DNA of 64,000 nucleotides, taken from NCBI GenBank assembly GCA_964016885.1, contig OZ024747.1, positions 79,918,001 through 79,982,000 of the forward strand. The letters run 5' to 3'. Below are positions 9,338-62,458 of this stretch, piece by piece; within the stretch, counting starts at the first letter, position 1, and each line of letters begins with the position of its first letter. The position numbers and the translations under genes were made by a program. The notes beneath the pieces were generated by a model. The model worked only from the letters and a program-made list of their open reading frames with translations, was not told the DNA's origin and did not search any database. The DNA comes from Eledone cirrhosa. Lineage: Eukaryota.

Positions 9338-9342
<5 letters not shown>

Positions 9343-9523
9343 AAAATAACAGATCAAAGTTTAAGCAAAGAATCGGTGCTTTCACCCTTAACGGGATCTT
9401 CTGAAACTTAAACTTTAATCTGTTATTTTAATAAATATTTGCTCTACGGTTCTTATATATTTGATATATATTTATCCTTATCGAGCCTTCTTTGGATTTT
9501 AGTCTTCAAATTTATTATTATTA

Positions 9524-9526
<3 letters not shown>
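9338..9526. mobile_element. TA-flanked island with short inverted arms and a degenerate minus-strand HHR
   Basis: Arms 9338-9365 and 9407-9434; minus strand reads AAGTTT-CAGAAGA-TCCC..GGGT-GAAAGCA..TGCTT-AAACTT. Confidence 0.5.
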
Positions 9527-9555
<29 letters not shown>

Positions 9556-9715
9556 GATTAGCTTTCACCGTATTTTTGACTAAAGAAATTTTAGCCTGAT
9601 AATGGGGTTTAGAACCCTCAGATAAATGGAAAAAGATGAGTATTGACGTACATGGGAGTCGAACCCACATCTTTGGTTATCCAGACCACTGTGCTACCAT
9701 TACACCAATGTGGGT

Positions 9716-9786
9716 GATGTGTTGGTGTAATGGTAGCACAGAGGTCTGGATAACCAAAGATGTGGGTTCGACTCCCATGTACGTCA
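9716..9786 (+). tRNA. tRNA-like cloverleaf (apparent GGA anticodon, short variable loop), probably element-borne
   Basis: Acceptor GATGTGT/GTACGTC+A, D arm GTGT-AATGGTA-GCAC, loop CT-GGA-TA, T arm GTGGG-TTCGACT-CCCAT, TTTTT at 9796-9800; anticodon stem imperfect. Confidence 0.6.
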
Positions 9787-9864
9787 ATACTCATCTTTTT
9801 CCATTTATCTGAGGGTTCTAAACCCCATTATCAGGCTAAAACTTCTTTAGTCAAAAATACGAAC

Positions 9865-9955
9865 AGAAGTCCGACGAGCTTTTGATTCCTGATTCTGACC
9901 AGATCGATACTGATCGAACCTTGAGCTGATCAATAGCGAAACGCGCGTCACTTCT
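9865..9955 (+). ncRNA. Type I hammerhead ribozyme, long stem II, palindromic stem III
   Basis: AGAAGT-CCGACGA-GCTTTTGAT..ATCAATAGC-GAAAC-GCGC-GTC-ACTTCT; U4>C core variant. Confidence 0.8.
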
Positions 9956-9999
9956 CAATAAGTAATGAAGACCTAACAAATCGTCCTATTTATAATTAA

Positions 10000-10055
<56 letters not shown>

Positions 10056-10420: not shown

Positions 10421-10654
10421 CGATTCTGAATTTGTTTAGCAAGATTCTTTATATGAAAACGTGTGTTGAAACCGATATTGTTATACTTTGGGAGGGTCAT
10501 GTTGCCAATAAGAAACACACGCACCAGTTGCTTTCACTTCAATTTATTATAATAAATTTATAAATTTAGGAATTTATAAATTTATCATAATAAATTGAAG
10601 TGAAAGCAACTGATGCGTGTGTTTCTTATTGGCAACAAGACCCTGCCAAAGTAT

Positions 10655-10662
<8 letters not shown>
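10415..10662. mobile_element. Miniature palindromic copy of the termini of the PLE at 32734-40648
   Basis: Both arms match the pLTR tail (GAAGTGAAAGCAACTG..ATGACCCTCCCAAAGTATAACAATAT); flanked by (TA)n. Confidence 0.9.
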
Positions 10663-10894: not shown

Positions 10895-10902
<8 letters not shown>

Positions 10903-11208
10903 AGATCAAAAGATGGTTAAAAGAGTTCCATGTATTTTATTATGCGCATTTCAAAAACAAATATCATCATGCGATGACATTTGCGTTTTCGTCAGATAAA
11001 ATAGGGAAACATGATATGAAGGTGAAAAAACACTTGTGAATAGTGCAGTTTTAAATCAACATATTGAAATACGCATAATAAAATACATGGAACTCTTTTA
11101 ACCATCTTTTGATCTTATATATTATTTATACTCCAGTCCTACAAACTGTAGAGTGGTACTTATCCGATATCTGCATTGCTTTATTGTACTACAATAAAAC
11201 TCACCTCC

Positions 11209-11211
<3 letters not shown>
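10895..11211. mobile_element. Asymmetric palindromic HHR island (family H1)
   Basis: Left arm is minus-sense with an HHR; the right arm restarts at TGAAAT.CGCATAATAAAAT and extends into an ACTCCAGTCCTAC..CCTCCTAC tail. Confidence 0.8.
10933..11003 (-). ncRNA. Type I hammerhead ribozyme
   Basis: Minus: TATTTTAT-CTGACGA-long stem II-GAAAT-GCGC-ATA-ATAAAATA. Confidence 0.8.
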
Positions 11212-11249
<38 letters not shown>

Positions 11250-11280
11250 AGATCAAAAGATGGTTAAAGGAGTTCCATAT

Positions 11281-11349
11281 ATTTTATTATGCGCATTTCA
11301 AAAACAAACATCATCATGCAATAATATTTGTGTTTTCATCAGATAAAAC
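11281..11349 (-). ncRNA. Type I hammerhead ribozyme (mirror copy)
   Basis: Reverse complement of 11470-11538. Confidence 0.8.
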
Positions 11350-11469
11350 AGGAGAACATGATATGAAGGCTAAAAAACACTTGTGGATAGTGCAGTTTTA
11401 AATCAACATATGTTGATTTAAAACTGCACTATCCACAAGTGTTTTTTAGCCTTCATATCATGTTCTCCT

Positions 11470-15611: not shown

Positions 15612-15795
15612 CACCCCATAAAAAACGAGCCCCCAAATAAAAAACGGACCCCACCCCCACCCCCCATCCCACCCCTCCCCACCCCCAAATAAAAAACGGA
15701 CCACCCCCATAGCACCCCCAAATAAAAAAATGGACCCCCCACCCATCCACAAATAAAAAACGAACCCCCCATCCCACCACCAAATAAAAACCGCC
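15612..15795. repeat. CCCCAAATAAAAAACGGACC-type minisatellite
   Basis: About 6 degenerate units. Confidence 0.7.
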
Positions 15796-15797
15796 TC

Positions 15798-15930
15798 GAT
15801 AACCAAAGATGTGGGTTCGACTCCCAAGTACGTCAATACTCATCTTTTTCCATCTCTCCGAGGGTTCTTAACCCCACTATCAGGCTAAATAATTTTCTTT
15901 AATTTCTTTAGTCAAAATACGGTGATAGCT
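15798..15930 (+). mobile_element. 5'-truncated copy of the tRNA-like island family
   Basis: GATAACCAAAGATGTGGGTTCGACTCCCA.GTACGTCAATACTCATCTTTTTCCAT matches 9749-9805; ends ATACGGTGATAGCT like the 9560 arm. Confidence 0.8.
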
Positions 15931-16651
15931 TACATTTATAATTTCAAACTCGCTCGATAATCAACTGTAACCTTTCCCTTGAAATGTGCCACAGGGGGCA
16001 GGGGGGTAGATAGGGGGGGGGGGGTGTCATTGCTGAAATAAATAGCTAAGTAGCTAAATGATAAAAGGTGGCAGATATCAGAATCGATAGAAAAGATGAG
16101 ACAAAATGGTCAGCAGTATTTCGTAACAATTTCTTAAAATTCTGAGCTTATGTCTATGTGTGTGCATGTGTATGTATGTGTGTGTGTGTGTGCTTGTCTG
16201 TGTGTGTGTGTGTAGGTCTATGTGTCTGCGTGTGTGTGTATGTATGTGTGTGTACTTGTGTGTTTGTGTATGTGTGTTTGTTTGTGTATGTGTGTGTTTG
16301 TGTAGGTCTATGTGTGTGTGCTTGTGTGTGTGTGTTTGTGTATGTATGTGTGTGTGTTTGTGTAGGTCTATGTGTATGTATGTATGTGTGTGTGTTTGTG
16401 TGTGTGTGTTAGTGTATGTGTGTGTTTGTGTAGGTCTATGTGTGTGCATGTATATGTGTATGTAATAAATATTCGCTTCTTATGATGAGAATTAGAAATC
16501 CTTACTCAATGTGAAATCAATAAGTTAAGAATGGAGTCCCATTGAGATTGTCTAACACATTTATTTCATGTTGGATCTCTGTTTCACACAATAGGCCTGT
16601 ACTGAGGATTTACTCTCGTTTTTTGAAGGGTTTTAATGCATCATATTTTAT

Positions 16652-17064: not shown

Positions 17065-19971
17065 AACGGACTAGTTAAGCGGTCGTTGACGGGGTCATCG
17101 TCAACAACAAGTGGTGGTTTGCTATGAAAAGAGCGATTAGAATAGAATCCATTAGGTTTAGTAAGGCTTTAGCAATAGAGAAAAATAGAGCAGAGGGAGA
17201 ATTAGTTAGAAAATTAGACGAGCTTAGCAAAGGCATCGCGACCGACGTACTTGCGGCGAAATTGGCCCTTTACCAATTCTTCAATGCAAAGCACGAAGGC
17301 TGCGTTGTCAGAGCTAGGGTGCGTGCTCTCAGACACGAGGGGACGAAAGCCGTTCAATTGGCCCGAGTGGCGGAGGCGCGTCGTGGCAACAAAACCACGA
17401 TCCGGTCTTTGGTGGACCACGACGGGCGCATGCTACTCGATCCCGGGCAAATGTGTGAAGCTTTCCAGCGACACTTCGCCCAGCTGTTCGGGGGGCAGCG
17501 GCGGGCCGAATCGAGGGATGGACTTTTGTGTCTACCTCGACGGACTGCCGCGGCTCTCGGCCACTGAGGCGGAGTATTGCGAAAAGCCGATAACAGCCGC
17601 TGAAGTACGGGAGGCAATGACTGGTTTCACAATGGCTGGTTTGGATGGTCTGCCCTATGAACTTTACGTACAGATGCCAGACTTGTTCGGAGGCCTCTTG
17701 GCGGACGTCTACTGCAACTGGCAACAGAACGGGAGAATTCCCAGCTCTGTGAGCCGAGGAGCTGTGGCGCTGCTGAGAAAGGATCCGAACAAGGGGGATA
17801 ACAGATAATTTCAGGTCCATAACTCTGCTAAACATAGAGTTCAAGATTTTGGCCAAGGTGCTAGCAAAGAGGTTGGTGCTTGTCGTTGGTGGTCTGGTGG
17901 GAGAGGCGCAGACGTGCGCCATTCCCGACAGATCCATCCACGACAACCTCCACCTCATGCGATACATCGTAGAGAGGGTAACTAGGGAACCTGGCACGGG
18001 TGGGTCCTTGATCAATTTAGATCAGTAGAAAGCTTTCGATAGGGTCGACCATCGTTACCTAGCGGCAGTCCTGAGAGCGGCTGGCTTTGGGCCCGTCTTC
18101 AGAGGCTGGATCGCTGCCATGCACAGCGACATCTGCTCTGTGGTGAGAGTGAACGGTCACCTTTCGGAACTGTTCAACATCATGCGCTCGGTCCGCCAAG
18201 GATGTCCCCTCTCGTCCCTCTTGTACGTATTGACTCTCGAGCCATTACTGCACAAACTGGAGACGTTGAGAGGGGTCCCGCACGAACTAGGATGCGGAAG
18301 ATCCGTGTCAGCATATGCGGACGATGTCACTGTAGTGGTGTCGAACGCCAAACACATCGAGGCGATCGGCACTACACTAAGAGAATACGAAGCGATGACA
18401 GGAGCAATGATCAACCAGGAAAAGTCAGTGGGCCTGCAGCTCGGCACCTGGAGAGGCAGGTCCATGCCGTCCAGCAGCGTCGTCGGGCGCTGGACGGACG
18501 GACCGGTTAAATTGCTCGGGGTCTGGTTCGGTCCGGATCTCCAGACGGACAAAAACTGGGACGAGCTGACGAGCAGGGTGGCTTCTCTCACCCAGAAATG
18601 GGCCGAGAGGAAGCTATCCCTGAAAGGTCGAGCGGAGGTGGCTAACGCGTATATCGTGTATGTCATCTCCTACCGCCTGACCGTCGTACCTTGTCCTAAG
18701 CCCCGCCTGACTGCGCTGGAGCGTTTGCTCTTTCGCTTTTTGTGGAAGGGACGCGCTCCGATGGTCAGGCGGTCCATCTGCTGTCAACACCCGCTACGTG
18801 GAAGGCTGGGGATGCCGTGGCTGATGATGCGCAGACACGCGCTCAGGCTACGACATCTCCACCTCTTCCTCGACGGTGATCAGGTGTGGTCGCCGTTTGC
18901 TAGACGCGTCTTTCCCCAGCTCGTCTCCTTGACGGAGCTGCAGTCCTGGGTCAAGCGAAGACCGAGAGGGAGCGCTTGGAGACTGGAATGTCTTCAGGCG
19001 CTCACAGCCCTCGACCAATCGGGCAATGTGATCGGTGGAAACTCCACCTTGGTGTTCTATAGAGGATTAGTGGAGAGGAAGAGCGACGACGTACTTGGGG
19101 AAACTCTAGGCGTCGACGAAAATCAACTAGCCAATCTCTTCGGAAGAACTTTCGGGCCGGGGCCTATGGACAACTTCCAGAAATCCCTGGCCTGGCAGTG
19201 CTACCGAGGAGCTTTGCCAGTTCGGCATAAACTCTACAGGCATGGAGGTGCCGTCAGCCGGGCATGTCCGAGATGCGCGCAGGGCGACGAAACCGTCCTG
19301 CACGCACTCGTCCAGTGCCCGAGCATTGCTGACTTGTGGGTTTATGTCGAACACCTGCTGTCGCGTGTAGGACGGATCCAGCTATCAGCTGAGTCCATCG
19401 TGAGGATTGCCCCGCCCTCTTCCTTTAGCCGGGAAGGGCAGGCAGTTTTTATCTGTCTGGTGGCCATGGCGAAAGAGATAGTATGGTGGACACGTTTGAA
19501 AGGGCTGAAGACGAGCACTTACCTCTTCGGTGATGTCCTGATTAACTTTTTCAAATTTCATTTGAAAAGGAAAATCAGGGTAGAAAGGGAAGTGCTCTCT
19601 TCCCAGCATTTTGTTGAAAGATGGGTGAGAGAGGCAAGAATGGCCCGAGTGAATGGACCTACTCTGAGTATGTGTTTGTAAATTAAAGGTGGAAAACTGG
19701 GAGAGGGCACTTGCTCTGGTGGTCAGGGTCACTGTGGCTTTTTAATGGGCTTTCTCCACGAATGTCCCTCGGAAGTCTCCCCCCTATTGAGGAATTTTTT
19801 CATTGTTCTATTATTACATCCTTTGTTTCTTGTTTTTTACACGCAGAAATGCTCATTTGTACCGTTCTGTATTGTCCTGTACTGTCCTTAATGTCTACTT
19901 TATGTAAACCCTTGTGGGTAATAAAGAAAGCATTATTATTATTATTATTATTATTATTGTTATTATTATTT
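17065..19971 (+). mobile_element. 5'-truncated L1-clade (Tx1-like) LINE with disrupted ORF2
   Basis: GLDGLPYE, FRSITLLN, DQ*KAFDRV (TAG at ~18026), QGCPLS, YADD and CPRC..ETVLHALVQC zinc motif; frameshifts near 17500 and 17805; AATAAA then a (TTA)n tail. Confidence 0.9.
17124..19681 (+). pseudogene. LINE ORF2 reverse transcriptase / zinc-finger pseudogene
   Basis: Spread over ORFs 17124-17567, 17251-17808 and 18119-19681. Confidence 0.85.
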
Positions 19972-21052: not shown

Positions 21053-21253
21053 TAAAGAGTGAGTACATATTACACAAGCATTAACAAAGCCAAGACAGAA
21101 GAATATATATGGGGATGCCATAAGTTGGGAGGAGTTTAAAGAGTAGAGTGAATAGAGTGAGATAGTGTAGAAAATAAAATTGGAGGATAAAGAATAGTAA
21201 AAAGTAAAAAATAAACATTGAAGAAATAAAAAATAAACATTGAAAAATAAGCA

Positions 21254-21394
21254 TTGAAAAATGTCTCGAATAGGAGGGTTCTAAATGCCGGTGAAATGAA
21301 CCAGCAGGGTACCATTAGTCTAAGTAATAGCAATGGTAGGCCCCGCAGCTCCCCGCATAAATTAGGTGAACATAGTAACCGTAGAAATAATAAT

Positions 21395-21441
<47 letters not shown>

Positions 21442-22163
21442 TAGAAATAAAAAGAATAGAAGAAGATTGAATACATATTTCAACCCCCCTTTTAACTCTG
21501 AAGTGGCTACAAATATTCCTAGGGCCTTCTTCTCTGTGTTAGAAAGGAACTTCCCTCCTGGTAATAGGTACCACTCTATCCTCAATAAGAATGTTGTTAA
21601 ACTTTCGTATTCTACAACCCAAAATCTGGCCTCTCATCTAGCCAATAATAATAATAAGAAAATTAAGGAAGGCCTGGACAACCTAAGCCTAGGGGAAAAC
21701 ACTGTAGTGGACAGAGAGAGCCTGGACACACGTGGTCAGCAAGCTGGTGATCATTCTGAGAATAGCATCACCAGAAATTGTAACTGTAGAAGGGCTTCGG
21801 GCTGCCCCCTGAATGGTTTCTGCCTTAGAAACATAGTTTACGCGTGTGATGTGGTAACTACAGCGTCCACTAAAACTTATATAGGATCAACTTCCACCCA
21901 CTTTAAGACCAGGTTTAACTCTCACCAGTGCACTTTTAGACACAATAAACTGAGGAATTCCACCTCCTTGGCAGCGTACGTCCACAACTTAAAAAATGCA
22001 CGAACACATTACACCCTCACTTGGAGTATGTAACCTATGCCTTACTGAATCCCACTCTATTATATTTGCTAAATGCTCTCTACTAAACAGAAAGTCAGAA
22101 ATATTTTCCTCTTGCCCCCACCGAATATTAAGCTCTTTCTTCTACTTTAAACCTATTAGCTAG
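21254..22163 (+). pseudogene. PLE linker plus GIY-YIG endonuclease fragment (same lineage as 60721-62458)
   Basis: YFNPPFNSEVATNI, CNCR..CPLNGFCL and IVY..YIGST..FKTRFNSH; after a deletion/frameshift at ~22028 it resumes CNLCLTE..LNRKSEIFSSCPHR. Confidence 0.85.
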
Positions 22164-32733: not shown

Positions 32734-32952
32734 ATATTTCGTTTCTGAATTTGTTTAGCAAGATTCTTTATCTGAAATCGTGTGTTGAAACCGATATTGT
32801 TATACTTTGGGAGGGTCATGTTGCCAATAAGAAACACACGCACCAGTTGCTTTCACTTCAATTTAATTTATTATATATTTATAAATTTACAAATTTATAA
32901 ATTTCTGGTTGGTTGGTTGGTTCCACAACCAGATAGTTGTTTATATATATAT

Positions 32953-32997
32953 AGTCATAGTTCTTTCGTCACGCACTCTGTGACCTCTTCAGTGACT
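32953..32997 (-). ncRNA. Minimal hammerhead in the inverted pLTR
   Basis: Reverse complement of 40445-40489 with one loop substitution. Confidence 0.75.
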
Positions 32998-33294
32998 GGG
33001 GATTTCTTTCTTCGTTTCTGTGCCTTTCCTTTCTTCTATCCTACGCCATTTTGTTTGTGTGTGGGTTGCGTGCTCAGTTTGCGCATGCGCCAGATCCGGG
33101 TGTCTGTGTGTGTTTGTGTTCATTTTTCTATTTTTCTATTTATATTTGTTTGTTTATTTATTTATTTATTGTTGGTTGGTTGTTTGTTCTATGTGTGTGT
33201 GTGTTTTCATTTTGTCTTGTGTGTGTTTTCATTTTGTGTGTGTTTTCAATTGTAAGTTGTTTGTTCTATGTGTGTGTGTGTTTTCATTTTGTCC

Positions 33295-35568
33295 TTAATT
33301 GTAAGTTGTGATGTTGCTGTTCCACTCATATTTTCTATTTAATTTTGGTTTTAATTCTTTTATGCTTACTGCCTCTGTAATTTGCCTAAACATTGCGTCT
33401 TTCTTGTGTGTGGATTCTATTTTTATTTCTATGCTCTCTAATTTACCCCTGTGTTCTATCTTAGCATGTTGGTAGAGCACAGATGATTCTTTACTATCTT
33501 GGAGGTCTCGCCAGTGTTCATTTATTCGTTCCCCTATACTACGAGCTGTCTCACCTATGTACACTATATTTTTGTTTCTACATTGTCCTTCAGTACATCT
33601 TATGCTATATACTACATTTCTAGTTTTACAGTTAATATGGGGGCTTATTTTACAGGTTATACATTTCCTATCTATACATGAGGGTCTTTGGAACGGGTAT
33701 GTCTTGCTAATAAGTGTTTTTACGGAGGTACCAGGTCTTTCTACTATCTTAATATTGAGATTATGTTTCTTTAGGGCCCTTCTAAATTTGTAGGCTAGTT
33801 CGCCTCTAGGGGTTGTATTGATGAACATTACACTCTGGTATTTATTGCTATCATACCATGAGTTTATTCTATTGGCCTTGTTCTTAGTTCTTTCTATTCT
33901 ATTCCAAAATTTGCTCCTATACAAGGGGCAGGTCCCATTTATGTCATTATTTACCATTTTTTCCCATTTGGTTCTGGCTCCTTTATACACTCTGATTCTA
34001 TCTCTCTGATTGTAGCCAGAGAACTGCATACGGTGGATGAAGTGTTGTATGTGTCTCTCTAGTTCTTCGGGGTTGCACATGCGGGACACATTTCTCATCA
34101 CCCGTACCAAATCCGCAATCAGTATGTTGATTTTGGTATGGTCCGAAATGGCCGAGTTTCGGTGGATCAGATGTTTGGAAGTCATGGGTTTGGCATAATG
34201 GGAATGGAGGATTTGTTTTTGGTTGTTAATAGTATCTAACCAGAGCTCTGTGTCTAGTACAGGTAATCGATGGTTGGGGTGTCTACTTGGGTAGTCTATA
34301 GTAACTCTAATGCTCTGGTGGATGGAGTTTGCTATTTGCTGGATGCTTTCCATTGTGTTTTTCTCTGGTTCCTGACTGTTCTTTAGTGGGGGTGTCTTAA
34401 CTACGATGTTTATATCATCTACGTAGCGGGAGTACATTATCAGGGTTAAGCTGTCTTCTAATTGTTCATTAAGTTTTTGTTTAAGTCTACTGTCCCACCA
34501 TACCATGAATAAGTTAGCTATGTCGCCTGCAATGCTAACACCAATGGCTGCTCCTTCCTCTTGGGCATATGTTTTACCATTAAATTTGAACATATGTTCC
34601 TTAAGGGTTAATTTTATGCTGGCCCCTACCGCATGTGCAATCATTTTCTTCAGTTCATCGTGGTTTTCGGGTGTCCGTATGGCTCTGGTCCACCCGTTCC
34701 ATCTATCTGTGTGGGTTTTCTTGGCCATTGAGGTAATGGTAGGTGGTCTGCCTCTTGCTGGTCTTGTAGGGCACAGGTTGCTAAGGTTGTAAGTGTCTAG
34801 GTAACTATTACTATGGGTAAGCTTAAGTAGAAGTCCCAGCTCACTGGTATCAATCCCACGGAACTCAACCTTGCTCTCGCTGATCATTTCGACGCATTTC
34901 TCCACAGCAAAATCCACGTCAATAGATGGATACAGGGACACAACATCCATACTGCCTATTATGCAGTTTGTTAGGTCCCCAGATCGGTTACCCGCGCCGA
35001 TTCTGCTGAGGAGGTCCTCCGTGCTGTCACACACATCTGGGGACATCTCAATGATGGGGCGTATGATCAGGGAGAGGAAGTAGGACAGTCTGTAGTTACT
35101 AGCAATGTTAGCCCCACAGACTGGCCGTGTTGGTGGTCCCGCGACAGGGTCCCAGCCCGTTTTATGGTCTTTTCGAAGCCCATACAACGCCGGCACGTCA
35201 TTGTTCCAGGCCTGGAAGTTGTTGGCAGTCCTTTTGTTGGGCTGCATTATATTTGTCCACATCACCATATGGGCATTGAGGGTTTTTTCTCTATCCTCAT
35301 GCTCCTGTGGTGTTACCTCTCTTGTGTTAGTGATGTGGGGTTGCATTGCCTGGATGTAGTTTGGCAGGCTGTCAACCGACATTCTGCCAGACTTGTCTGT
35401 TGGAAAGCATGCTATCTCTCCATTACGCGAGCGCTGCATGAGCTTACGCAAGCCATTTGCAGATTCTTCTCCCAGTTGCTGGGCCTCTATTCTATTATGC
35501 TTCTTGCTATACTGTTCTATAATATTTCTAAGTTCGGATTTAGCTATCCTAAATTGTGCTTCTGTTTG
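33295..35568 (-). pseudogene. 5'-truncated inverted copy of the PLE RT-GIY-YIG ORF
   Basis: Nearly identical to 37874-40147; the N-terminus of ORF 33295-35673 is a junction artefact. Confidence 0.9.
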
Positions 35569-36158
35569 GACAATGTAGAAACAAAAATATAGTGTACATA
35601 GGTGAGACAGCTCGTAGTATAGGGGAACGAATAAATGAACACTGGCGAGACCTCCAAGATAGTAAAGAATCATCTGTGCTCTACCAACATGCTAAGATAG
35701 AACACAGGGGTAAATTAGAGAGCATAGAAATAAAAATAGAATCCACACACAAGAAAGACGCAATGTTTAGGCAAATTACAGAGGCAGTAAGCATAAAAGA
35801 ATTAAAACCAAAATTAAATAGAAAATATGAGTGGAACAGCAACATCACAACCTACAATTAATGACAAAATGAAAACACACACACACATAGAACAAACAAC
35901 TTACAATTGAAAACACACACAAAATGAAAACACACACAAGACAAAATGAAAACACACACACACATAGAACAAACAACCAACCAACAATAAATAAATAAAT
36001 AAACAAACAAATATAAATAGAAAAATAGAAAAATGAACACAAACACACACAGACACCCGGATGTGGCGCATGCGCAAACTGAGCACGCAACCCACACACA
36101 AACAAAATGGCGTAGGATAGAAGAAAGGAAAGGCACAGAAACGAAGAAAGAAATCCCC

Positions 36159-36209
36159 AGTCACTGAAGAGGTCACAGAGTGTGTGACGAAAGAACTATA
36201 ACTATGACT
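36159..36209 (+). ncRNA. Hammerhead in the 5' pLTR with a 6-nt loop III duplication
   Basis: AGTCA-CTGAAGA-G-GTCACA..TGTGAC-GAAAG-AACTATAA-CTA-TGACT. Confidence 0.75.
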
Positions 36210-36342
36210 ATATATATATAAACAACTATCTGGTTGTGGAACCAACCAACCAACCAGAAATTTATAAATTTGTAAATTTATAAATATATAATAAATTAAA
36301 TTGAAGTGAAAGCAACTGGTGCGTGTGTTTCTTATTGGCAAC

Positions 36343-37164
36343 ATGACCCTCCCAAAGTATAACAATATCGGTTTCAACACACGATTTCAGATAAAGAATC
36401 TTGCTAAACAAATTCAGAAACGAAATATCGTAAGCCTTAGCCAGGCTAACAAGATACTGAAAACCACCATGTTCTGTTGTCTACGAAAAACCATAACATC
36501 TCGACAACTACACTTCATAAAACTGTGCACCACTTCTAGAATCTACACCAACACCACCAATACCGACGTTAGAAGATTACAACTCACCAAAAAACAAGCA
36601 GATAGGCTAAAACGAACTTTAATTCTAAACATAAAAAAGAAGATCTATAGAGAATTAAGTCATCAAGAAAAACTAAAGCGTAACCTAATAGATGAAATAT
36701 CTAAAATCACCACACCAGCAGAAAAACTAACATTTATAAGCCTTATACGCCCCGAAGAACAGTACATTACTCAAGAATGTAATAAGCACTTTAACAGAAA
36801 ATTAAAGTGGCTTAAACAGGCAAAGCTAAATCGGGATACTATAGAGTATACCAATAGATATCCCGACAAAATTGACGGTATCAACATGGCCGACACCTCA
36901 TTATCTGAAGAGTTCAACAATGAAAATACCAACATTTATGGAAACACGGAAATAGATAATAATGAAATGTCTGTGTTACGTCTGCCACCCAAATTTGCGA
37001 CATTCAAGAAGGTAAATATGATTAGTTGTCTGTCAGAAATAGAAAAATCATTTACGAAACTACGCTGGAGCATCAAAAAACAAAAACAAAAGCAACAATA
37101 TACGCACACACATATACAACACACATCCCAACAACAACAGACACACAGACACAAACAACAATAA
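36343..37164 (+). CDS. PLE polyprotein N-terminal segment
   Basis: ATG 36343 (MTLPKYNN) is conserved in the diverged copy at 23843; VLRLPPKFA resembles the PLE N-terminal LGPKF-type motif. Confidence 0.7.
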   Translation: MTLPKYNNIGFNTRFQIKNLAKQIQKRNIVSLSQANKILKTTMFCCLRKTITSRQLHFIKLCTTSRIYTNTTNTDVRRLQLTKKQADRLKRTLILNIKKKIYRELSHQEKLKRNLIDEISKITTPAEKLTFISLIRPEEQYITQECNKHFNRKLKWLKQAKLNRDTIEYTNRYPDKIDGINMADTSLSEEFNNENTNIYGNTEIDNNEMSVLRLPPKFATFKKVNMISCLSEIEKSFTKLRWSIKKQKQKQQYTHTHIQHTSQQQQTHRHKQQ

Positions 37165-37438
37165 CAACAACAATAGCAACATACCCAGATACAACAACAA
37201 CAATAGCAACATACCCAGATACAACAGACACGCAGACACAAACAACAATAACAACACACACGGAGACAACAATAACAACAACACACACATCAAAAACAAC
37301 AACAATAGCAACATACCCAGATACAACAACAACAGACACGCAAACACAAACAACAATAACAACACACACAACAACGATAACACACACACACACGGAGACA
37401 ACAACAACACACATCAACAACAACAACACACGCATTCA

Positions 37439-40147
37439 ATGCCTCTCACCACCACCACAATCTTAACAAACACACAGACACAGAAAACAAGTAATGACAG
37501 TAGCACAGAAATCAGAGAAATAAGAGAAAGTAATAGGATTAAAAGGAAAAGGAGATGGGAGACTAAGGACAAAGAGAATAACCAAGACGAACACACAGAC
37601 ACACAAAATAGGGTAGATAACAACATTGAGCCAGTGGAAAGAGACAGGAATAATTATGAGAGACATAGAAACAACCATGAAGCTGAGGCTGCTGCTGTTG
37701 GTGGAAATAGAAACAACACAACTAACAATAACAATAGCACTAGTACACATAAAGCAGCAGCCTGGAACTCTCCGTTTTATAACCCCTCCGATAAATCATT
37801 CGACCTACGACGAGTCCACGCCACGACTTTGCCATTTAACAAACGCACGCAGTTGCCGTCGCAGGTCGATGAACAAACAGAAGCACAATTTAGGATAGCT
37901 AAATCCGAACTTAGAAATATTATAGAACAGTATAGCAAGAAGCATAATAGAATAGAGGCCCAGCAACTGGGAGAAGAATCTGCAAATGGCTTGCGTAAGC
38001 TCATGCAGCGCTCGCGTAATGGAGAGATAGCATGCTTTCCAACAGACAAGTCTGGCAGAATGTCGGTTGACAGCCTGCCAAACTACATCCAGGCAATGCA
38101 ACCCCACATCACTAACACAAGAGAGGTAACACCACAGGAGCATGAGGATAGAGAAAAAACCCTCAATGCCCATATGGTGATGTGGACAAATATAATGCAG
38201 CCCAACAAAAGGACTGCCAACAACTTCCAGGCCTGGAACAATGACGTGCCGGCGTTGTATGGGCTTCGAAAAGACCATAAAACGGGCTGGGACCCTGTCG
38301 CGGGACCACCAACACGGCCAGTCTGTGGGGCTAACATTGCTAGTAACTACAGACTGTCCTACTTCCTCTCCCTGATCATACGCCTCATCATTGAGATGTC
38401 CCCAGATGTGTGTGACAGCACGGAGGACCTCCTCAGCAGAATCGGCGCGGGTAACCGATCTGGGGACCTAACAAACTGCATAATAGGCAGTATGGATGTT
38501 GTGTCCCTGTATCCATCTATTGACGTGGATTTTGCTGTGGAGAAATGCGTCGAAATGATCAGCGAGAGCAAGGTTGAGTTCCGTGGGATTGATACCAGTG
38601 AGCTGGGACTTCTACTTAAGCTTACCCATAGTAATAGTTACCTAGACACTTACGACCTTAGCAACCTGTGCCCTACAAGACCAGCAAGAGGCAGACCACC
38701 TACCATTACCTCAATGGCCAAGAAAACCCACACAGATAGATGGAACGGGTGGACCAGAGCCATACGGACACCCGAAAACCACGATGAACTGAAGAAAATG
38801 ATTGCACATGCGGTAGGGGCCAGCATAAAATTAACCCTTAAGGAACATATGTTCAAATTTAATGGTAAAACATATGCCCAAGAGGAAGGAGCAGCCATTG
38901 GTGTTAGCATTGCAGGCGACATAGCTAACTTATTCATGGTATGGTGGGACAGTAGACTTAAACAAAAACTTAATGAACAATTAGAAGACAGCTTAACCCT
39001 GATAATGTACTCCCGCTACGTAGATGATATAAACATCGTAGTTAAGACACCCCCACTAAAGAACAGTCAGGAACCAGAGAAAAACACAATGGAAAGCATC
39101 CAGCAAATAGCAAACTCCATCCACCAGAGCATTAGAGTTACTATAGACTACCCAAGTAGACACCCCAACCATCGATTACCTGTACTAGACACAGAGCTCT
39201 GGTTAGATACTATTAACAACCAAAAACAAATCCTCCATTCCCATTATGCCAAACCCATGACTTCCAAACATCTGATCCACCGAAACTCGGCCATTTCGGA
39301 CCATACCAAAATCAACATACTGATTGCGGATTTGGTACGGGTGATGAGAAATGTGTCCCGCATGTGCAACCCCGAAGAACTAGAGAGACACATACAACAC
39401 TTCATCCACCGTATGCAGTTCTCTGGCTACAATCAGAGAGATAGAATCAGAGTGTATAAAGGAGCCAGAACCAAATGGGAAAAAATGGTAAATAATGACA
39501 TAAATGGGACCTGCCCCTTGTATAGGAGCAAATTTTGGAATAGAATAGAAAGAACTAAGAACAAGGCCAATAGAATAAACTCATGGTATGATAGCAATAA
39601 ATACCAGAGTGTAATGTTCATCAATACAACCCCTAGAGGCGAACTAGCCTACAAATTTAGAAGGGCCCTAAAGAAACATAATCTCAATATTAAGATAGTA
39701 GAAAGACCTGGTACCTCCGTAAAAACACTTATTAGCAAGACATACCCGTTCCAAAGACCCTCATGTATAGATAAGAAATGTATAACCTGTAAAATAAGCC
39801 CCCATATTAACTGTAAAACTAGAAATGTAGTATATAGCATAAGATGTACTGAAGGACAATGTAGAAACAAAAATATAGTGTACATAGGTGAGACAGCTCG
39901 TAGTATAGGGGAACGAATAAATGAACACTGGCGAGACCTCCAAGATAGTAAAGAATCATCTGTGCTCTACCAACATGCTAAGATAGAACACAGGGGTAAA
40001 TTAGAGAGCATAGAAATAAAAATAGAATCCACACACAAGAAAGACGCAATGTTTAGGCAAATTACAGAGGCAGTAAGCATAAAAGAATTAAAACCAAAAT
40101 TAAATAGAAAATATGAGTGGAACAGCAACATCACAACTTACAATTAA
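37439..40147 (+). CDS. PLE reverse transcriptase plus GIY-YIG endonuclease
   Basis: TDKSG, LYGLRKDHK, RPV, SMDVVSLYPSI, QEEGAAIG, RYVDD, LPVLD, C-x4-C-x2-C linker and NVVY..YIGETARSIGERINEH; no internal stops. Confidence 0.92.
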   Translation: MPLTTTTILTNTQTQKTSNDSSTEIREIRESNRIKRKRRWETKDKENNQDEHTDTQNRVDNNIEPVERDRNNYERHRNNHEAEAAAVGGNRNNTTNNNNSTSTHKAAAWNSPFYNPSDKSFDLRRVHATTLPFNKRTQLPSQVDEQTEAQFRIAKSELRNIIEQYSKKHNRIEAQQLGEESANGLRKLMQRSRNGEIACFPTDKSGRMSVDSLPNYIQAMQPHITNTREVTPQEHEDREKTLNAHMVMWTNIMQPNKRTANNFQAWNNDVPALYGLRKDHKTGWDPVAGPPTRPVCGANIASNYRLSYFLSLIIRLIIEMSPDVCDSTEDLLSRIGAGNRSGDLTNCIIGSMDVVSLYPSIDVDFAVEKCVEMISESKVEFRGIDTSELGLLLKLTHSNSYLDTYDLSNLCPTRPARGRPPTITSMAKKTHTDRWNGWTRAIRTPENHDELKKMIAHAVGASIKLTLKEHMFKFNGKTYAQEEGAAIGVSIAGDIANLFMVWWDSRLKQKLNEQLEDSLTLIMYSRYVDDINIVVKTPPLKNSQEPEKNTMESIQQIANSIHQSIRVTIDYPSRHPNHRLPVLDTELWLDTINNQKQILHSHYAKPMTSKHLIHRNSAISDHTKINILIADLVRVMRNVSRMCNPEELERHIQHFIHRMQFSGYNQRDRIRVYKGARTKWEKMVNNDINGTCPLYRSKFWNRIERTKNKANRINSWYDSNKYQSVMFINTTPRGELAYKFRRALKKHNLNIKIVERPGTSVKTLISKTYPFQRPSCIDKKCITCKISPHINCKTRNVVYSIRCTEGQCRNKNIVYIGETARSIGERINEHWRDLQDSKESSVLYQHAKIEHRGKLESIEIKIESTHKKDAMFRQITEAVSIKELKPKLNRKYEWNSNITTYN

Positions 40148-40444
40148 GGACAAAATGAAAACACACACACACATAGAACAAACAACTTACAATTGAAAAC
40201 ACACACAAAATGAAAACACACACAAGACAAAATGAAAACACACACACACATAGAACAAACAACCAACCAACAATAAATAAATAAATAAACAAACAAATAT
40301 AAATAGAAAAATAGAAAAATGAACACAAACACACACAGACACCCGGATCTGGCGCATGCGCAAACTGAGCACGCAACCCACACACAAACAAAATGGCGTA
40401 GGATAGAAGAAAGGAAAGGCACAGAAACGAAGAAAGAAATCCCC

Positions 40445-40489
40445 AGTCACTGAAGAGGTCACAGAGTGTGTGACGAAAGAACTATGACT
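40445..40489 (+). ncRNA. Minimal hammerhead in the 3' pLTR
   Basis: AGTCA-CTGAAGA-G-GTCACA-GAGTG-TGTGAC-GAAAG-AA-CTA-TGACT. Confidence 0.75.
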
Positions 40490-40648
40490 ATATATATATA
40501 AACAACTATCTGGTTGTGGAACCAACCAACCAACCAGAAATTTATAAATTTGTAAATTTATAAATATATAATAAATTAAATTGAAGTGAAAGCAACTGGT
40601 GCGTGTGTTTCTTATTGGCAACATGACCCTCCCAAAGTATAACAATAT

Positions 40649-57252: not shown

Positions 57253-59118
57253 AGTTAGCCAAAGTCCCACAACCACTGGTAGCTGCTGTTGAACGTCTGA
57301 CCAAGAACTGGTACACCAATTTGATTCTTAGAGGTGAGAAGGAGCAAGTTAAGACTGATAAGATACATTACCAGAAGGGCATCTTTCAGGGTGATAGCTT
57401 GTCAGTGCTACTCTTCGTTATCTCACTAAATCCACTATCTTACCTACTCAGGAAACAAGGTGGACAAGGAGAAGTGGGTCCAGAAGTATCTCCTATCTTT
57501 TCTTTGTTGATGACTTGAAGTTGTATGGGCCAAATATCAATGACATCAAGAAACAATTGGACCTCATTACACAATTTTCAACAGACATCAAAATGAAATT
57601 TGGTGAGTCCAAGTGTGCATATTTGGCAGTAAAACGTGGAAGAGCTGTGCCCTCCTCTAGAAATCTAGAGATGAACGGCCTGACAATACAACCTCTACAG
57701 TCAGGTGACAACTACAGATATCTTGGACAGGATGAGAATGTCAGATATGATAGGCCCATAAATAAGGAGAGAACCAGAACTGAATACCTCAGAAGAGTAA
57801 AGAAAATATGGTCATCAGAACTGTCAGCGTACAAAAAATTCATTGCCCACAATACTTATGCTGTGCCAATTCTAACGCCAACATTTGGCCTGCTGAACTG
57901 GTCATTGCAAGAACTAAGTGAAATGGATGTTAGAACTCGAAAACTTCTCAGTGTTACTGGGAACTTTAACATCAATGGTAATATGGATAGGCTATACTTC
58001 TCACGCAAGGAAGGTGGCCGGATCCTAAAATCCATATTAACATCATATGAGACCCGGATAGTAACACTGAAGCAACATCGTCAACAGAGGAAAAAGGTTG
58101 GCAACCATCTTGCCCAGGTTTGTGAGCATGAAAAAAAAAGTATCATTAGAATAGCCACTGATCTGGAGGAGAGATATGGAATAAAGCCTGATATAAATCT
58201 CTCACCCAGAGAAATCGGAAGATCCTATTCAATGTTCAAACAAGATGAAAAAATTGACCAATTTACAGAAAAAGTTGTGCATGAATACTTAAGACGTAAA
58301 ACACAGACCATAAGGGGATAAACCACTCAAAAAGCCTGGCATGGGGTTCCGACAAGTTTATGACATCACACCTTGAGGGATATCTCTATGCAATACAGGA
58401 ACAAGAACTCCCTACCAAATATCTGCTACACAAAAGAGGAGGGCCATCAGCTGACAATAAATGTAGGCTATGTAAAACAAAGATCGAGGATGTAAGCCAC
58501 ATTGTTGCCAGCTGCGAAAGAATGTCATCTCGCTACTACCTCCCCATGAGACACGATGGGATAGCTAGAACCATCTGGAACGCACTTCGGAAAACAAAAT
58601 TAAGAACAAACGAGGAAGAATATATTGAGACAGATGGCACTAAGGAATACTGGTGGAACCTGAAAATAAAAACTGCCACCAAATTAAAGCACAACCGGCC
58701 TGATATTGTTGTTTGGGACCACACATTGAAAACGTGTTCTGTTATGGAGATCAGCTGCCCACTTGATGTAAACGTTGTCAGAAAAATACAGGAGAAGGAG
58801 GACATCTACGGACCATTGATGAGGAGTTTACAAATCCAGTATCCAAGATACACCTTTAGCTTCATACCCATCATTATTGGAGCTACGGGTTATATACCAA
58901 CCCGCTTGGACCAAAGTATGACTGAAATTGAATTTGTGGACAAAGACCGCAGCTCCCTAATTCATAGTCTGCAAATGGTTGCGATAGCTGGCACCTTCAA
59001 AATTTGCAAAACATTCTTGCGATTCAAGGGATGACAATTTCTTTTCTTTTACAACCTTTTACAACCAGGAAGGTGGCCGGTCAAAAATATATACTCGAAA
59101 TTAAGAGAAAGAGATAAA
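57253..59118 (+). mobile_element. 5'-truncated RLE-type non-LTR retrotransposon (R4/Dong-like), frameshifted
   Basis: GIFQGDSLS, FVDDLKLY, YRYLG, CRLC..HIVASC, RHD and NRPDIVV..MEISCP..K (PD-D/ExK); frameshifts near 57490 and 58320. Confidence 0.88.
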
Positions 59119-60247: not shown

Positions 60248-60720
60248 CATAAATAATCACAAGTGTTTCTTATATTGCTCGGAAAGAGTTTTGCGGGTTA
60301 AATCCACATCAAGGTTCATTGCTCGCAAAAATATCTTGTTTTGATTTTGCAGCAGGTCAAGGGAGGTAACTCTGGCCGGTGTTAGGGCAGTCTTTCCCGG
60401 ACAATTTTTTTTTTTTTTTTTTTTTTTAGCCGCATCCGTTTGTCTGAGGCTGGGTCTGGTATGCAAGGATTGTTTTCTGGGTGTTATTTTGCAGCGCCTC
60501 ACTCAGAGGCCACACTCCGAGAGTAGGGGGGTGGGGGTGGAACCATAGGACGTTACGGTGGCGATTACGTGTCATTGTACTTTTGCTACAGGTGGTTCCA
60601 TCTAAGTGACAGCTCTTATGTGTGTTAATGCGCAGTCGCCCGTTCGGTGCCCCTTTCACTTTATGCTCGGGTGCACTCTTTCTACCTCTTCCATGTTTAT
60701 GTACACGAAGATGTTGGTTG

Positions 60721-62458
60721 GGATATACCTCCTACATAAGCTTAGGGAAGAAATACCGGCCCTACAACGAGGTGTATATAGGGACGACGCCCTGTTTACC
60801 GTTAGGAACCATAGCCCCCGTAGGATAGAGAACCTTAACAAACATATACACAGGTTCTTTAAGTCATACGGCCTATCCGTAACTATGGACCTCAACCACA
60901 GGGTTGTCAACTTCCTAGACGTGACCCTGGAGTTGAGTACGGGCTTATACAAGCCATACCATAAGCCTGGAGAGTGCCTCTCTTATATTAATTATGCCTC
61001 CAACCACCCTAAGCAGACTCTCAACTCCATTGTCTATAGTATCTCACATAGAATCTCGAGGCTATCCGCCAATGAGGATATCTTCAACCAAGCGGCTGAT
61101 TACTACAATAGGGCCCTGATAAGCGCCGGCTTTAACCGAGGAATTTCCTACATCCCTAACGCTAGCTCTAGAAACCACCCCCCTCATAAAACTAACGTTA
61201 TAGTAAGCAATACCTATAACCGATCACGCGGCGACCTCGTTGAAGTCGGATATAATAGAATAGATAACCGCACCAAAGATCACGTCCCCGGCGACGGTGA
61301 ACACTGTAGATTACTCAAACTATTCCCCTATTACAAAACCAACAAAGGCGACGGCCTACTACCAACGCCTTCCAACCAACATCTTCGTGTACATAAACAT
61401 GGAAGAGGTAGAAAGAGTGCACCCGAGCATAAAGTGAAAGGGGCACCGAACGGGCGACTGCGCATTAACACACATAAGAGCGGTCACTTAGATGGAACCA
61501 CCCGTAGCAAAAGTACAAGGACACGTAATCGCCACCGTAACGTCCTATGGTTCCACCCCCCTACTCTCGGAGTGTGGCCTCCAACATACCCCGGATGTTC
61601 TTCGAAGCCTTAGAGAAGAACTTCCCGCCCAACCATAGGTATAGAAAAATTCTTAATAGGAACAATATAAAAATATCCTTCTCTACTACTCCTAACCTAG
61701 CAGACATCATAGGAACAACGAACCACAGTAATATCACCAAGACACAGCACCTCGACACAGACGCACCTACACCTGACAATAACTATATCGGCCTTAACAA
61801 CTCCCTGGCAGCATCCAATAGTGTTGGCAACGGCATCCGCAGACGCAACCAGAATGACCGCGAAATGACTGGGGAACATGCAGAACATGACGTGCGGAAT
61901 AACAATCGCACCATCCCGCGTGCTGTGGGTTGTAATTGTGCTAACGACAGCTGCGGTAGCGTAGGTAACAACGTAGGCAGCAACAATGATAGCCTTACCG
62001 TGGGAAATAGACGGAACCGCGACAGAAATTGCAACTGCCGCGACAGAGGACGCTGCCCCCTTAGAGGATACTGCTTGACTGATAGGGTTATATATAGATG
62101 CACTATTACTAGCCACAATAGCGTTAAACATTATATAGGGGCCACCTCCGGCCCGTTCAAAATTAGGTTTCGAACACATCTCCACTCTTTCACAAATAGA
62201 AAACTAAGGCACTCCACTTCGCTCGCGGACTACATCACATCACTAAAGGACTTAAACATCAGCTTCTCCACGCACTGGGAGATTGTCGGCAGGGCTGCAC
62301 CGTACAACTTCAAGAGGAAATGCGATCTTTGCCTCATGGAGCTCTACCACATCATAACTGCACCGCACGATCTCATCAACAGCAGAGCTGAAACAGCGAT
62401 AAGTTGTACACATCGCTTAAAAATATCCTTCTTCAGATGGGTTAAGGATGAAGAGTGA
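60721..62458 (+). pseudogene. PLE RT C-terminal half plus GIY-YIG, frameshift in a C-run at ~61560
   Basis: YRDD, VNFLDVTL, YHKP, SNHP, WFHPP/YS, CNCR..CPLRGYCL, VIY..YIGAT..FKIRFRTH and CDLCLME. Confidence 0.88.

Follow-up and report, generated by a model that had tools for sequence, protein, structure and literature searches.

A single join of a tRNA-bearing tandem repeat and a hammerhead tail at a TA microsatellite in the genome of Eledone cirrhosa

The tRNA-like sequence and the hammerhead ribozyme motif that adjoin each other at positions 9550-10003 of the window, i.e., the 64,000-nucleotide stretch of the Eledone cirrhosa genome analysed herein, belong to two separate and abundant repeat families, and their join is unique to this locus. 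The flagged join is very probably a one-off chimera, and we put at roughly 80% the probability that the locus represents a unique join of two TA-inserted families, with template switching by the reverse transcriptase (RT) of a Penelope-like element (PLE) as the likely cause. Both TA microsatellites and PLEs are abundant in this genome of 2,996 Mb.

The insertion lies between two (TA)n tracts (9525-9550 on the left and 10004-10051 on the right), which constitute its target. Adjacent to the left tract is an inverted arm (9550-9708, − strand) corresponding to positions 169 to 11 of a 260-nt tRNA-bearing unit and having the normal TA ending, followed by a direct arm (9712-9861, + strand) that corresponds to positions 1-150 of the same unit and stops where the hammerhead tail starts. 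Sequence comparison assigned this tail (9862-10003, + strand) to a separate PLE-derived family, as the 3' tail of a copy truncated at its 5' side. The inverted and direct arms matched a natural monomer at another locus (L088) at 98.7% over 159 nt and 98% over 150 nt, respectively, and differed from each other at 2 of 140 positions (9569-9708 vs 9722-9861, inverted), which bears out both the inverted duplication of the tRNA part and the TA-flanked palindrome described earlier in a sequence-only reading of this DNA. The 3' ends of both arms point outward with TA on either side, and the TA target, the inverted arm and the 5' truncation are the marks of the PLE machinery that the same reading had invoked. 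Its second family copy (15798-15930) was also found, at 15795-15955 (+ strand), as an older, 5'-truncated copy (unit positions 35-187) that begins within the anticodon loop and lacks the A box; because it runs on into the normal family tail without a hammerhead, however, it belongs to the tRNA family alone. Rfam searches over the whole window returned mainly microsatellite-driven miRNA noise, and repeat finding was swamped by the TA repeats.

The 71-nt cloverleaf (9716-9786, + strand) scored 41.4 bits against the Rfam tRNA model (gathering threshold 29), and ARAGORN called tRNA-Ser(gga) on both arms. The A box (9723-9733), the B box (9765-9775), the anticodon GGA (9748-9750), the variable loop of 4 nt, and the TTTTT located 10 nt downstream (9796-9800, + strand) were all present as originally described; the last is a predicted Pol III stop and in whole units lies also within a leader-trailer helix. 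On the + strand, the cloverleaf of the window copy carries a private change at 9742 that disrupts an anticodon-stem pair and has U at position 37, and its predicted folding was no better than that of shuffled sequences (z 0.19). Among 48 distinct calls in the family, the anticodon was GGA in 37 and GGT, CGA, GTA, TGA, AGA, or CTG in the rest. A functional tRNA-Ser(GGA) would have a fixed anticodon, a purine at position 37, and a long variable arm, none of which was observed here, in support of the earlier view that this is not a normal tRNA. Since the anticodon drifts among the copies, the cassette is best regarded as a pseudo-tRNA, and such repeats populate genome annotations with spurious tRNA-Ser(GGA) genes. 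The D arm of the cloverleaf resembles that of tRNA-Gln, and natural tRNA-Gln genes match it in the D arm only; with few isotypes compared, these genes were identical to the cloverleaf at 44-47 of 72 positions, against 45-48 for an unrelated tRNA-like repeat. Tandem clusters of tRNA-Thr and tRNA-Gln genes were seen on contig C1 (L098 and L100; L114-L118). Another tRNA-like cassette occurs in loci L099 and L101-L109 (approximately 1170-2890 in the tRNA orientation) inside a 1.7-kb AT-rich repeat, which is flanked by (TA)n and has an internal inverted repeat and no ORF; its anticodons vary (GGC, GAC, AGC, GGT, and GTC), and leader-trailer complementarity around the cloverleaf was discernible by eye.

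The hammerhead motif (9865-9955, + strand) is of type I and of the PLE kind, with a long helix II and a palindromic helix III. Motif anatomy placed helix I at 9865-9870/9950-9955, the core at 9871-9877, and the GUC at 9947-9949, with a predicted cut after 9949. This layout, including the GUC, agrees with the previous description, but the term "well-formed" needs qualifying: core position 4 is C (family-wide, 29 of 31), helix III is minimal, and the Rfam score was 17.4 bits (gathering threshold 34; E 0.084) and in another register. The motif is therefore not fully canonical. Its fold gave a z of -1.84, and the perfect 6-bp helix I of the window copy is a variant, a mismatch being present there in 30 of 34 family matches.

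Metazoan PLE pLTR hammerheads (PMC4209133) resemble the 9862-10003 tail in being of type I with a long helix II, a G10.1-C11.1 pair, and a small palindromic helix III, and likewise occur mostly as single 5'-truncated copies. Unlike in them, core position 4 is fixed as C instead of U in the present, putatively self-cleaving family. The tail further shares with them the position of helix III near the 3' end and an upstream RT, the latter at one locus (L128). There, the upstream region of the hammerhead family reaches a decayed PLE RT remnant (tblastn E ~1e-17 against the 766-aa ORF of L140; RVT_1 E 1.5e-10); as this was the case in one of 12 long loci, the connection of the hammerhead family to PLEs depends on that single locus. 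No clear PLE ORF was found beside the hammerhead tail in five upstream-extended loci. Copies of the hammerhead family are 87-90% alike to the window copy, have 500-800 nt further upstream in common, frequently terminate in TA or TTA repeats, and are sometimes paired tail-outward. The PLE of L140 (1-2298, − strand) and L143, which has a 766-codon stop-free RT frame, ends at its 3' side in a sequence unlike either repeat family.

The independence of the two families was evident from genome-wide searches. Motif matches numbered 2,742 for the tRNA-unit part and 2,347 for the hammerhead part, while a 20-mer spanning the junction, which represents one breakpoint, matched once in 2,996 Mb at up to one mismatch. 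A search with 9712-10000 gave 54 entries among the matches listed, all of which, except for the locus itself and one tail-only match, fell within query positions 1-151, the matches of the tRNA part ending at 150-151; a search with 9862-10000 returned a different set. The sequence-only reading had proposed to search with the two parts separately for co-occurrence. Among the best 40 candidates per search, the hammerhead tail was absent within ~1.5 kb of all 28 other tRNA-family loci, and the tRNA part was absent from all 29 other hammerhead loci (28 places) as well as from all 12 longer ones. Given the single breakpoint and this number of candidates, rare joins elsewhere may exist. On C1, the closest pair of a tRNA motif and a hammerhead motif was 14.7 kb apart among the 100 and 46 exact places listed. 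Sequences extending past 9861 in public runs of three organisms (X1, X4, X5, and X10) continued into the normal family tail (17 of 17 reads in X10). One X1 contig of single-copy depth (4.5) matched 9832-9892 without a difference, with 30 letters to the left of the join, one under the threshold; X1 may be the source sample. This exact single-copy contig indicates that the join, which is blunt and unique at 9861/9862 and retains no TA, is probably real DNA rather than an assembly error.

These results bear directly on the proposal of a single active non-autonomous element, driven by Pol III and cleaving itself, that would comprise both the tRNA and the hammerhead, or of a founder copy of such a family. 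In its favor, both motifs are in the sense orientation, 78 nt apart, and apparently intact, the X1 contig supports their join as real DNA, and the same design exists in the Sm-alpha elements of Schistosoma (PMC6765202, PMC2770079). A tRNA-plus-hammerhead retroposon would, however, carry both parts as a repeated unit, and we found one junction in the genome and no partner at other loci. The TTTTT lies between the two parts, 65 nt ahead of the hammerhead, and an RNA made by Pol III is expected to stop there. Furthermore, metazoan PLE pLTR hammerheads require dimers and cleave weakly, and a single minimal motif did not cleave in vitro (PMC4209133), whereas the present hammerhead is a lone one with a minimal helix III. 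With the TTTTT ahead of it and no dimer partner, the chimera probably does not function as a unit, and we consider the hybrid element very improbable. The sequence-only reading had itself named adjacency at this locus only as the observation that speaks against such a hybrid, and the reading of a single Pol III-promoted, ribozyme-processed element consequently fails by its own standard. As a family, the tRNA-hammerhead hybrid has no importance, being one accident of a design already known from schistosomes.

The join is most readily explained by a template switch of a Penelope-like RT during one insertion. A GIY-YIG endonuclease would have cut the TA repeat, cDNA synthesis would have started by priming at the hammerhead family's 3' tail, and after approximately 140 nt had been copied the RT would have jumped to position 150 of a 260-nt-unit RNA; filling of the other side with another unit copy would have produced the palindrome. 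We infer the order of cut, priming, jump, and fill-in, and a later tail insertion combined with a small deletion would give an identical join. The latter route corresponds to a nested insertion, in which a young 5'-truncated hammerhead copy landed on the right end of an existing palindrome and deleted its last 10-70 nt. PLEs often insert into or beside older PLE copies (PMC6765202), and a 97% identical sister of the hammerhead tail, inserted independently and alone, lies 44 kb upstream (L026). We nevertheless regard the nested insertion as unlikely, because the junction has no TA, in contrast to 81 of 90 unit 3' ends, which border (TA)n, and because the same tail swap was found in several other copies. 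Indeed, among the 9 unit 3' ends without TA contact, foreign repeat tails were detected also in L065, L071, and L086 (BLAST, 92-95%), and the unit end in L024 appeared by eye to continue into an antisense stretch similar to the hammerhead family. Such copies ending in foreign repeats suggest that tail swaps are a recurring accident, consistent with the favored template switch.

The 260-nt family that contributed the arms is non-coding and young; its near-identical copies number in the thousands, and its non-tRNA half is 96-98% identical among the best of them. Whole units carry the tRNA-like cassette with intact A and B boxes, and the 19 nt ahead of the cloverleaf pair without a gap with the 19 nt behind it, TTTTT included; the window copy is without most of this leader. 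The natural leader-trailer stretch folded with a z of -3.83 for the + strand, against -1.51 for the − strand, and circular folding of three + strand monomers gave -1.3 to -2.5, which falls short of demonstrating circular RNA. No ribozyme was detected in the unit: Rfam on a natural trimer reported only the tRNA, and a motif scan found no CUGANGA-type core on the + strand and a single core-like 7-mer on the − strand.

The insertion pattern of the unit was compiled from 54 insertions at 51 loci, with duplicated places and the array locus L029 left out. An inverted arm was present in 36 of them, with the tails directed outward in all 36, and 39 crossed the monomer junction, where unit position 260 lies directly upstream of position 1. 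Within this sample, the latter arrangement speaks against a pLTR of a longer element, as in the earlier suggestion of a pLTR that had captured a tRNA. The 3' ends fell at unit positions 150-220 in 84 of 90 cases, 30 of them at 219-220, while the 5' ends were scattered and no poly(A) tail was seen; since the loci had been picked by two queries (unit positions 1-151 and ~142-260), these end statistics are biased. A tandem array of ~27 diverged units extends over 6.9 kb on C1 (L141 6812-10000, L029, and L142 1-730) and is a possible source of multimeric RNA. PLE copies have been described as 5'-truncated, partly tandem, biased toward microsatellites, and provided with an inverted copy at the 5' side, and head-to-tail families of PLEs that are non-autonomous are also on record (PMC8557442); the unit likewise shows 5' truncation, partial tandems, an inverted 5' arm, and a microsatellite target.

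Two simpler origins were weighed for this family, namely an ordinary tRNA-headed SINE and a satellite spread by DNA-level events. The tRNA-like head with its A and B boxes, the ~27-unit array, and the failure to find a PLE partner with unit sequence across 0.5 Mb (143 loci) and the window would be compatible with them. The tRNA is, however, internal to permuted multimers with outward-facing inverted arms, unlike in an ordinary SINE, and the clustered 3' ends, scattered 5' ends, and missing poly(A) tail follow the PLE pattern (PMC8557442); either origin thus appears highly doubtful. No similarity was found between the unit and the 3' ends of the PLE ORFs of the window or of the L140 element. 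In one case, at L017 (873-1280, duplicated in L018), the 5' end of a unit dimer is fused at position 31, without TA, to the middle of a PLE RT fragment, possibly as a result of a template switch onto a PLE mRNA.

Rather than a SINE or satellite, we infer that the 260-nt unit is a non-autonomous parasite of PLEs, copied from a multimeric or circular + strand RNA. Its PLE-like insertion pattern points to the + strand as the likely RNA, and as the copies reach far past the TTTTT and across the monomer junction, the template would be a read-through multimer or a circle. Rare variants were common to 19 of 332 direct and 53 of 492 inverted unit pairs within an insertion vs 669 of 79,694 pairs between insertions, counts that include the duplicated loci L017/L018 and L089/L090. 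Sharing was accordingly 7 to 13 times higher within an insertion, yet neighbours often differ (e.g., L075); this fits repeated copying of one template, as in a rolling circle, and is not decisive.

As to the function of the cassette, the intact A and B boxes together with the drifting anticodon lead us to tentatively favor, with somewhat less than even odds, a role as internal Pol III promoter, with the template perhaps supplied by read-through transcripts; the TTTTT 10 nt past the cloverleaf argues against efficient read-through. It is less probable that the cassette provides a cutting signal for host nucleases, and slightly less so again that it is a mere passenger. One speculative and rather unlikely scheme places the 260-nt family in a widespread and so far unpublished class of PLE parasites that lack a ribozyme and have a tRNA mimic where others have the hammerhead. 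In this scheme, tRNA-processing nucleases of the host would cleave the multimers at each cloverleaf, held on the 19-bp leader-trailer helix, and the resulting monomers or circles would be copied by a TA-targeting PLE. If so, the chimera would be a fossil of one RT handling both RNAs, and the partner of the unit should be sought among the relatives of the hammerhead family. The origin of tandem and inverted PLE insertions and the substitute for the hammerhead in clades devoid of one are given as open questions in PMC8557442, and this young non-coding family offers a small test substrate for both.

Comparison with known systems places the two families as follows. The design of a tRNA promoter combined with a hammerhead is already known from Sm-alpha and Sj-alpha of Schistosoma, SINE-like tandem repeats in which a type I hammerhead lies behind a tRNA-related Pol III promoter (PMC6765202, PMC2770079). 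Sm-alpha-like copies have been reported as tRNA-Gln related, and the cloverleaf here has a tRNA-Gln-like D arm; in Sm-alpha, however, the combination is the family unit, whereas the present one occurs as a single chimera, no hammerhead having been detected in the tRNA family. Animal non-LTR retrozymes are ~300-nt non-coding AT-rich units occurring as dimers to multimers and have been proposed to be non-autonomous PLE derivatives (PMC7229834; bioRxiv 10.64898/2026.07.22.740005). The 260-nt unit similarly forms short, non-coding, dispersed tandem multimers, but while the definition of retrozymes calls for a hammerhead per monomer and for circular RNA, the unit has the tRNA-like cassette instead and is known from DNA alone; the available part of the latter account does not mention a tRNA. 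Non-autonomous Chlamys PLEs such as MRC1 (PMC8557442) generally have a 3' end in common with an autonomous family, which was not found for the 260-nt unit in the 143 loci plus the window, and, unlike the unit, are described without a tRNA cassette in the accessible portion of that source. Searches of the open literature turned up no description of a ribozyme-free, tRNA-bearing tandem element of the PLE type, and Repbase or Dfam may catalogue the family. Within the literature searched, the tRNA-bearing family would thus represent a previously undescribed variety of non-autonomous PLE parasite.

The window contains further repeats of related kinds. A 1034-codon stop-free frame at 37043-40147 (+ strand) has RT and C-terminal GIY-YIG matches (weak Pfam scores), and an inverted, 5'-truncated copy lying upstream (32794-35568) is 100% complementary to this PLE over 2775 nt; the pair is a very young insertion. 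Broken retrotransposon frames, LINE-like and PLE-like by motifs, are located at 17079-19681, 21251-22033, 57398-59034, and 60606-62458. Palindromic or repeated inserts lie between TA runs at 9340-9525, 10480-10660, and 10900-11460 and are apparently the tails of further TA-targeting families, the one at 10480-10660 resembling the 3' end of the PLE at 32794-40648.
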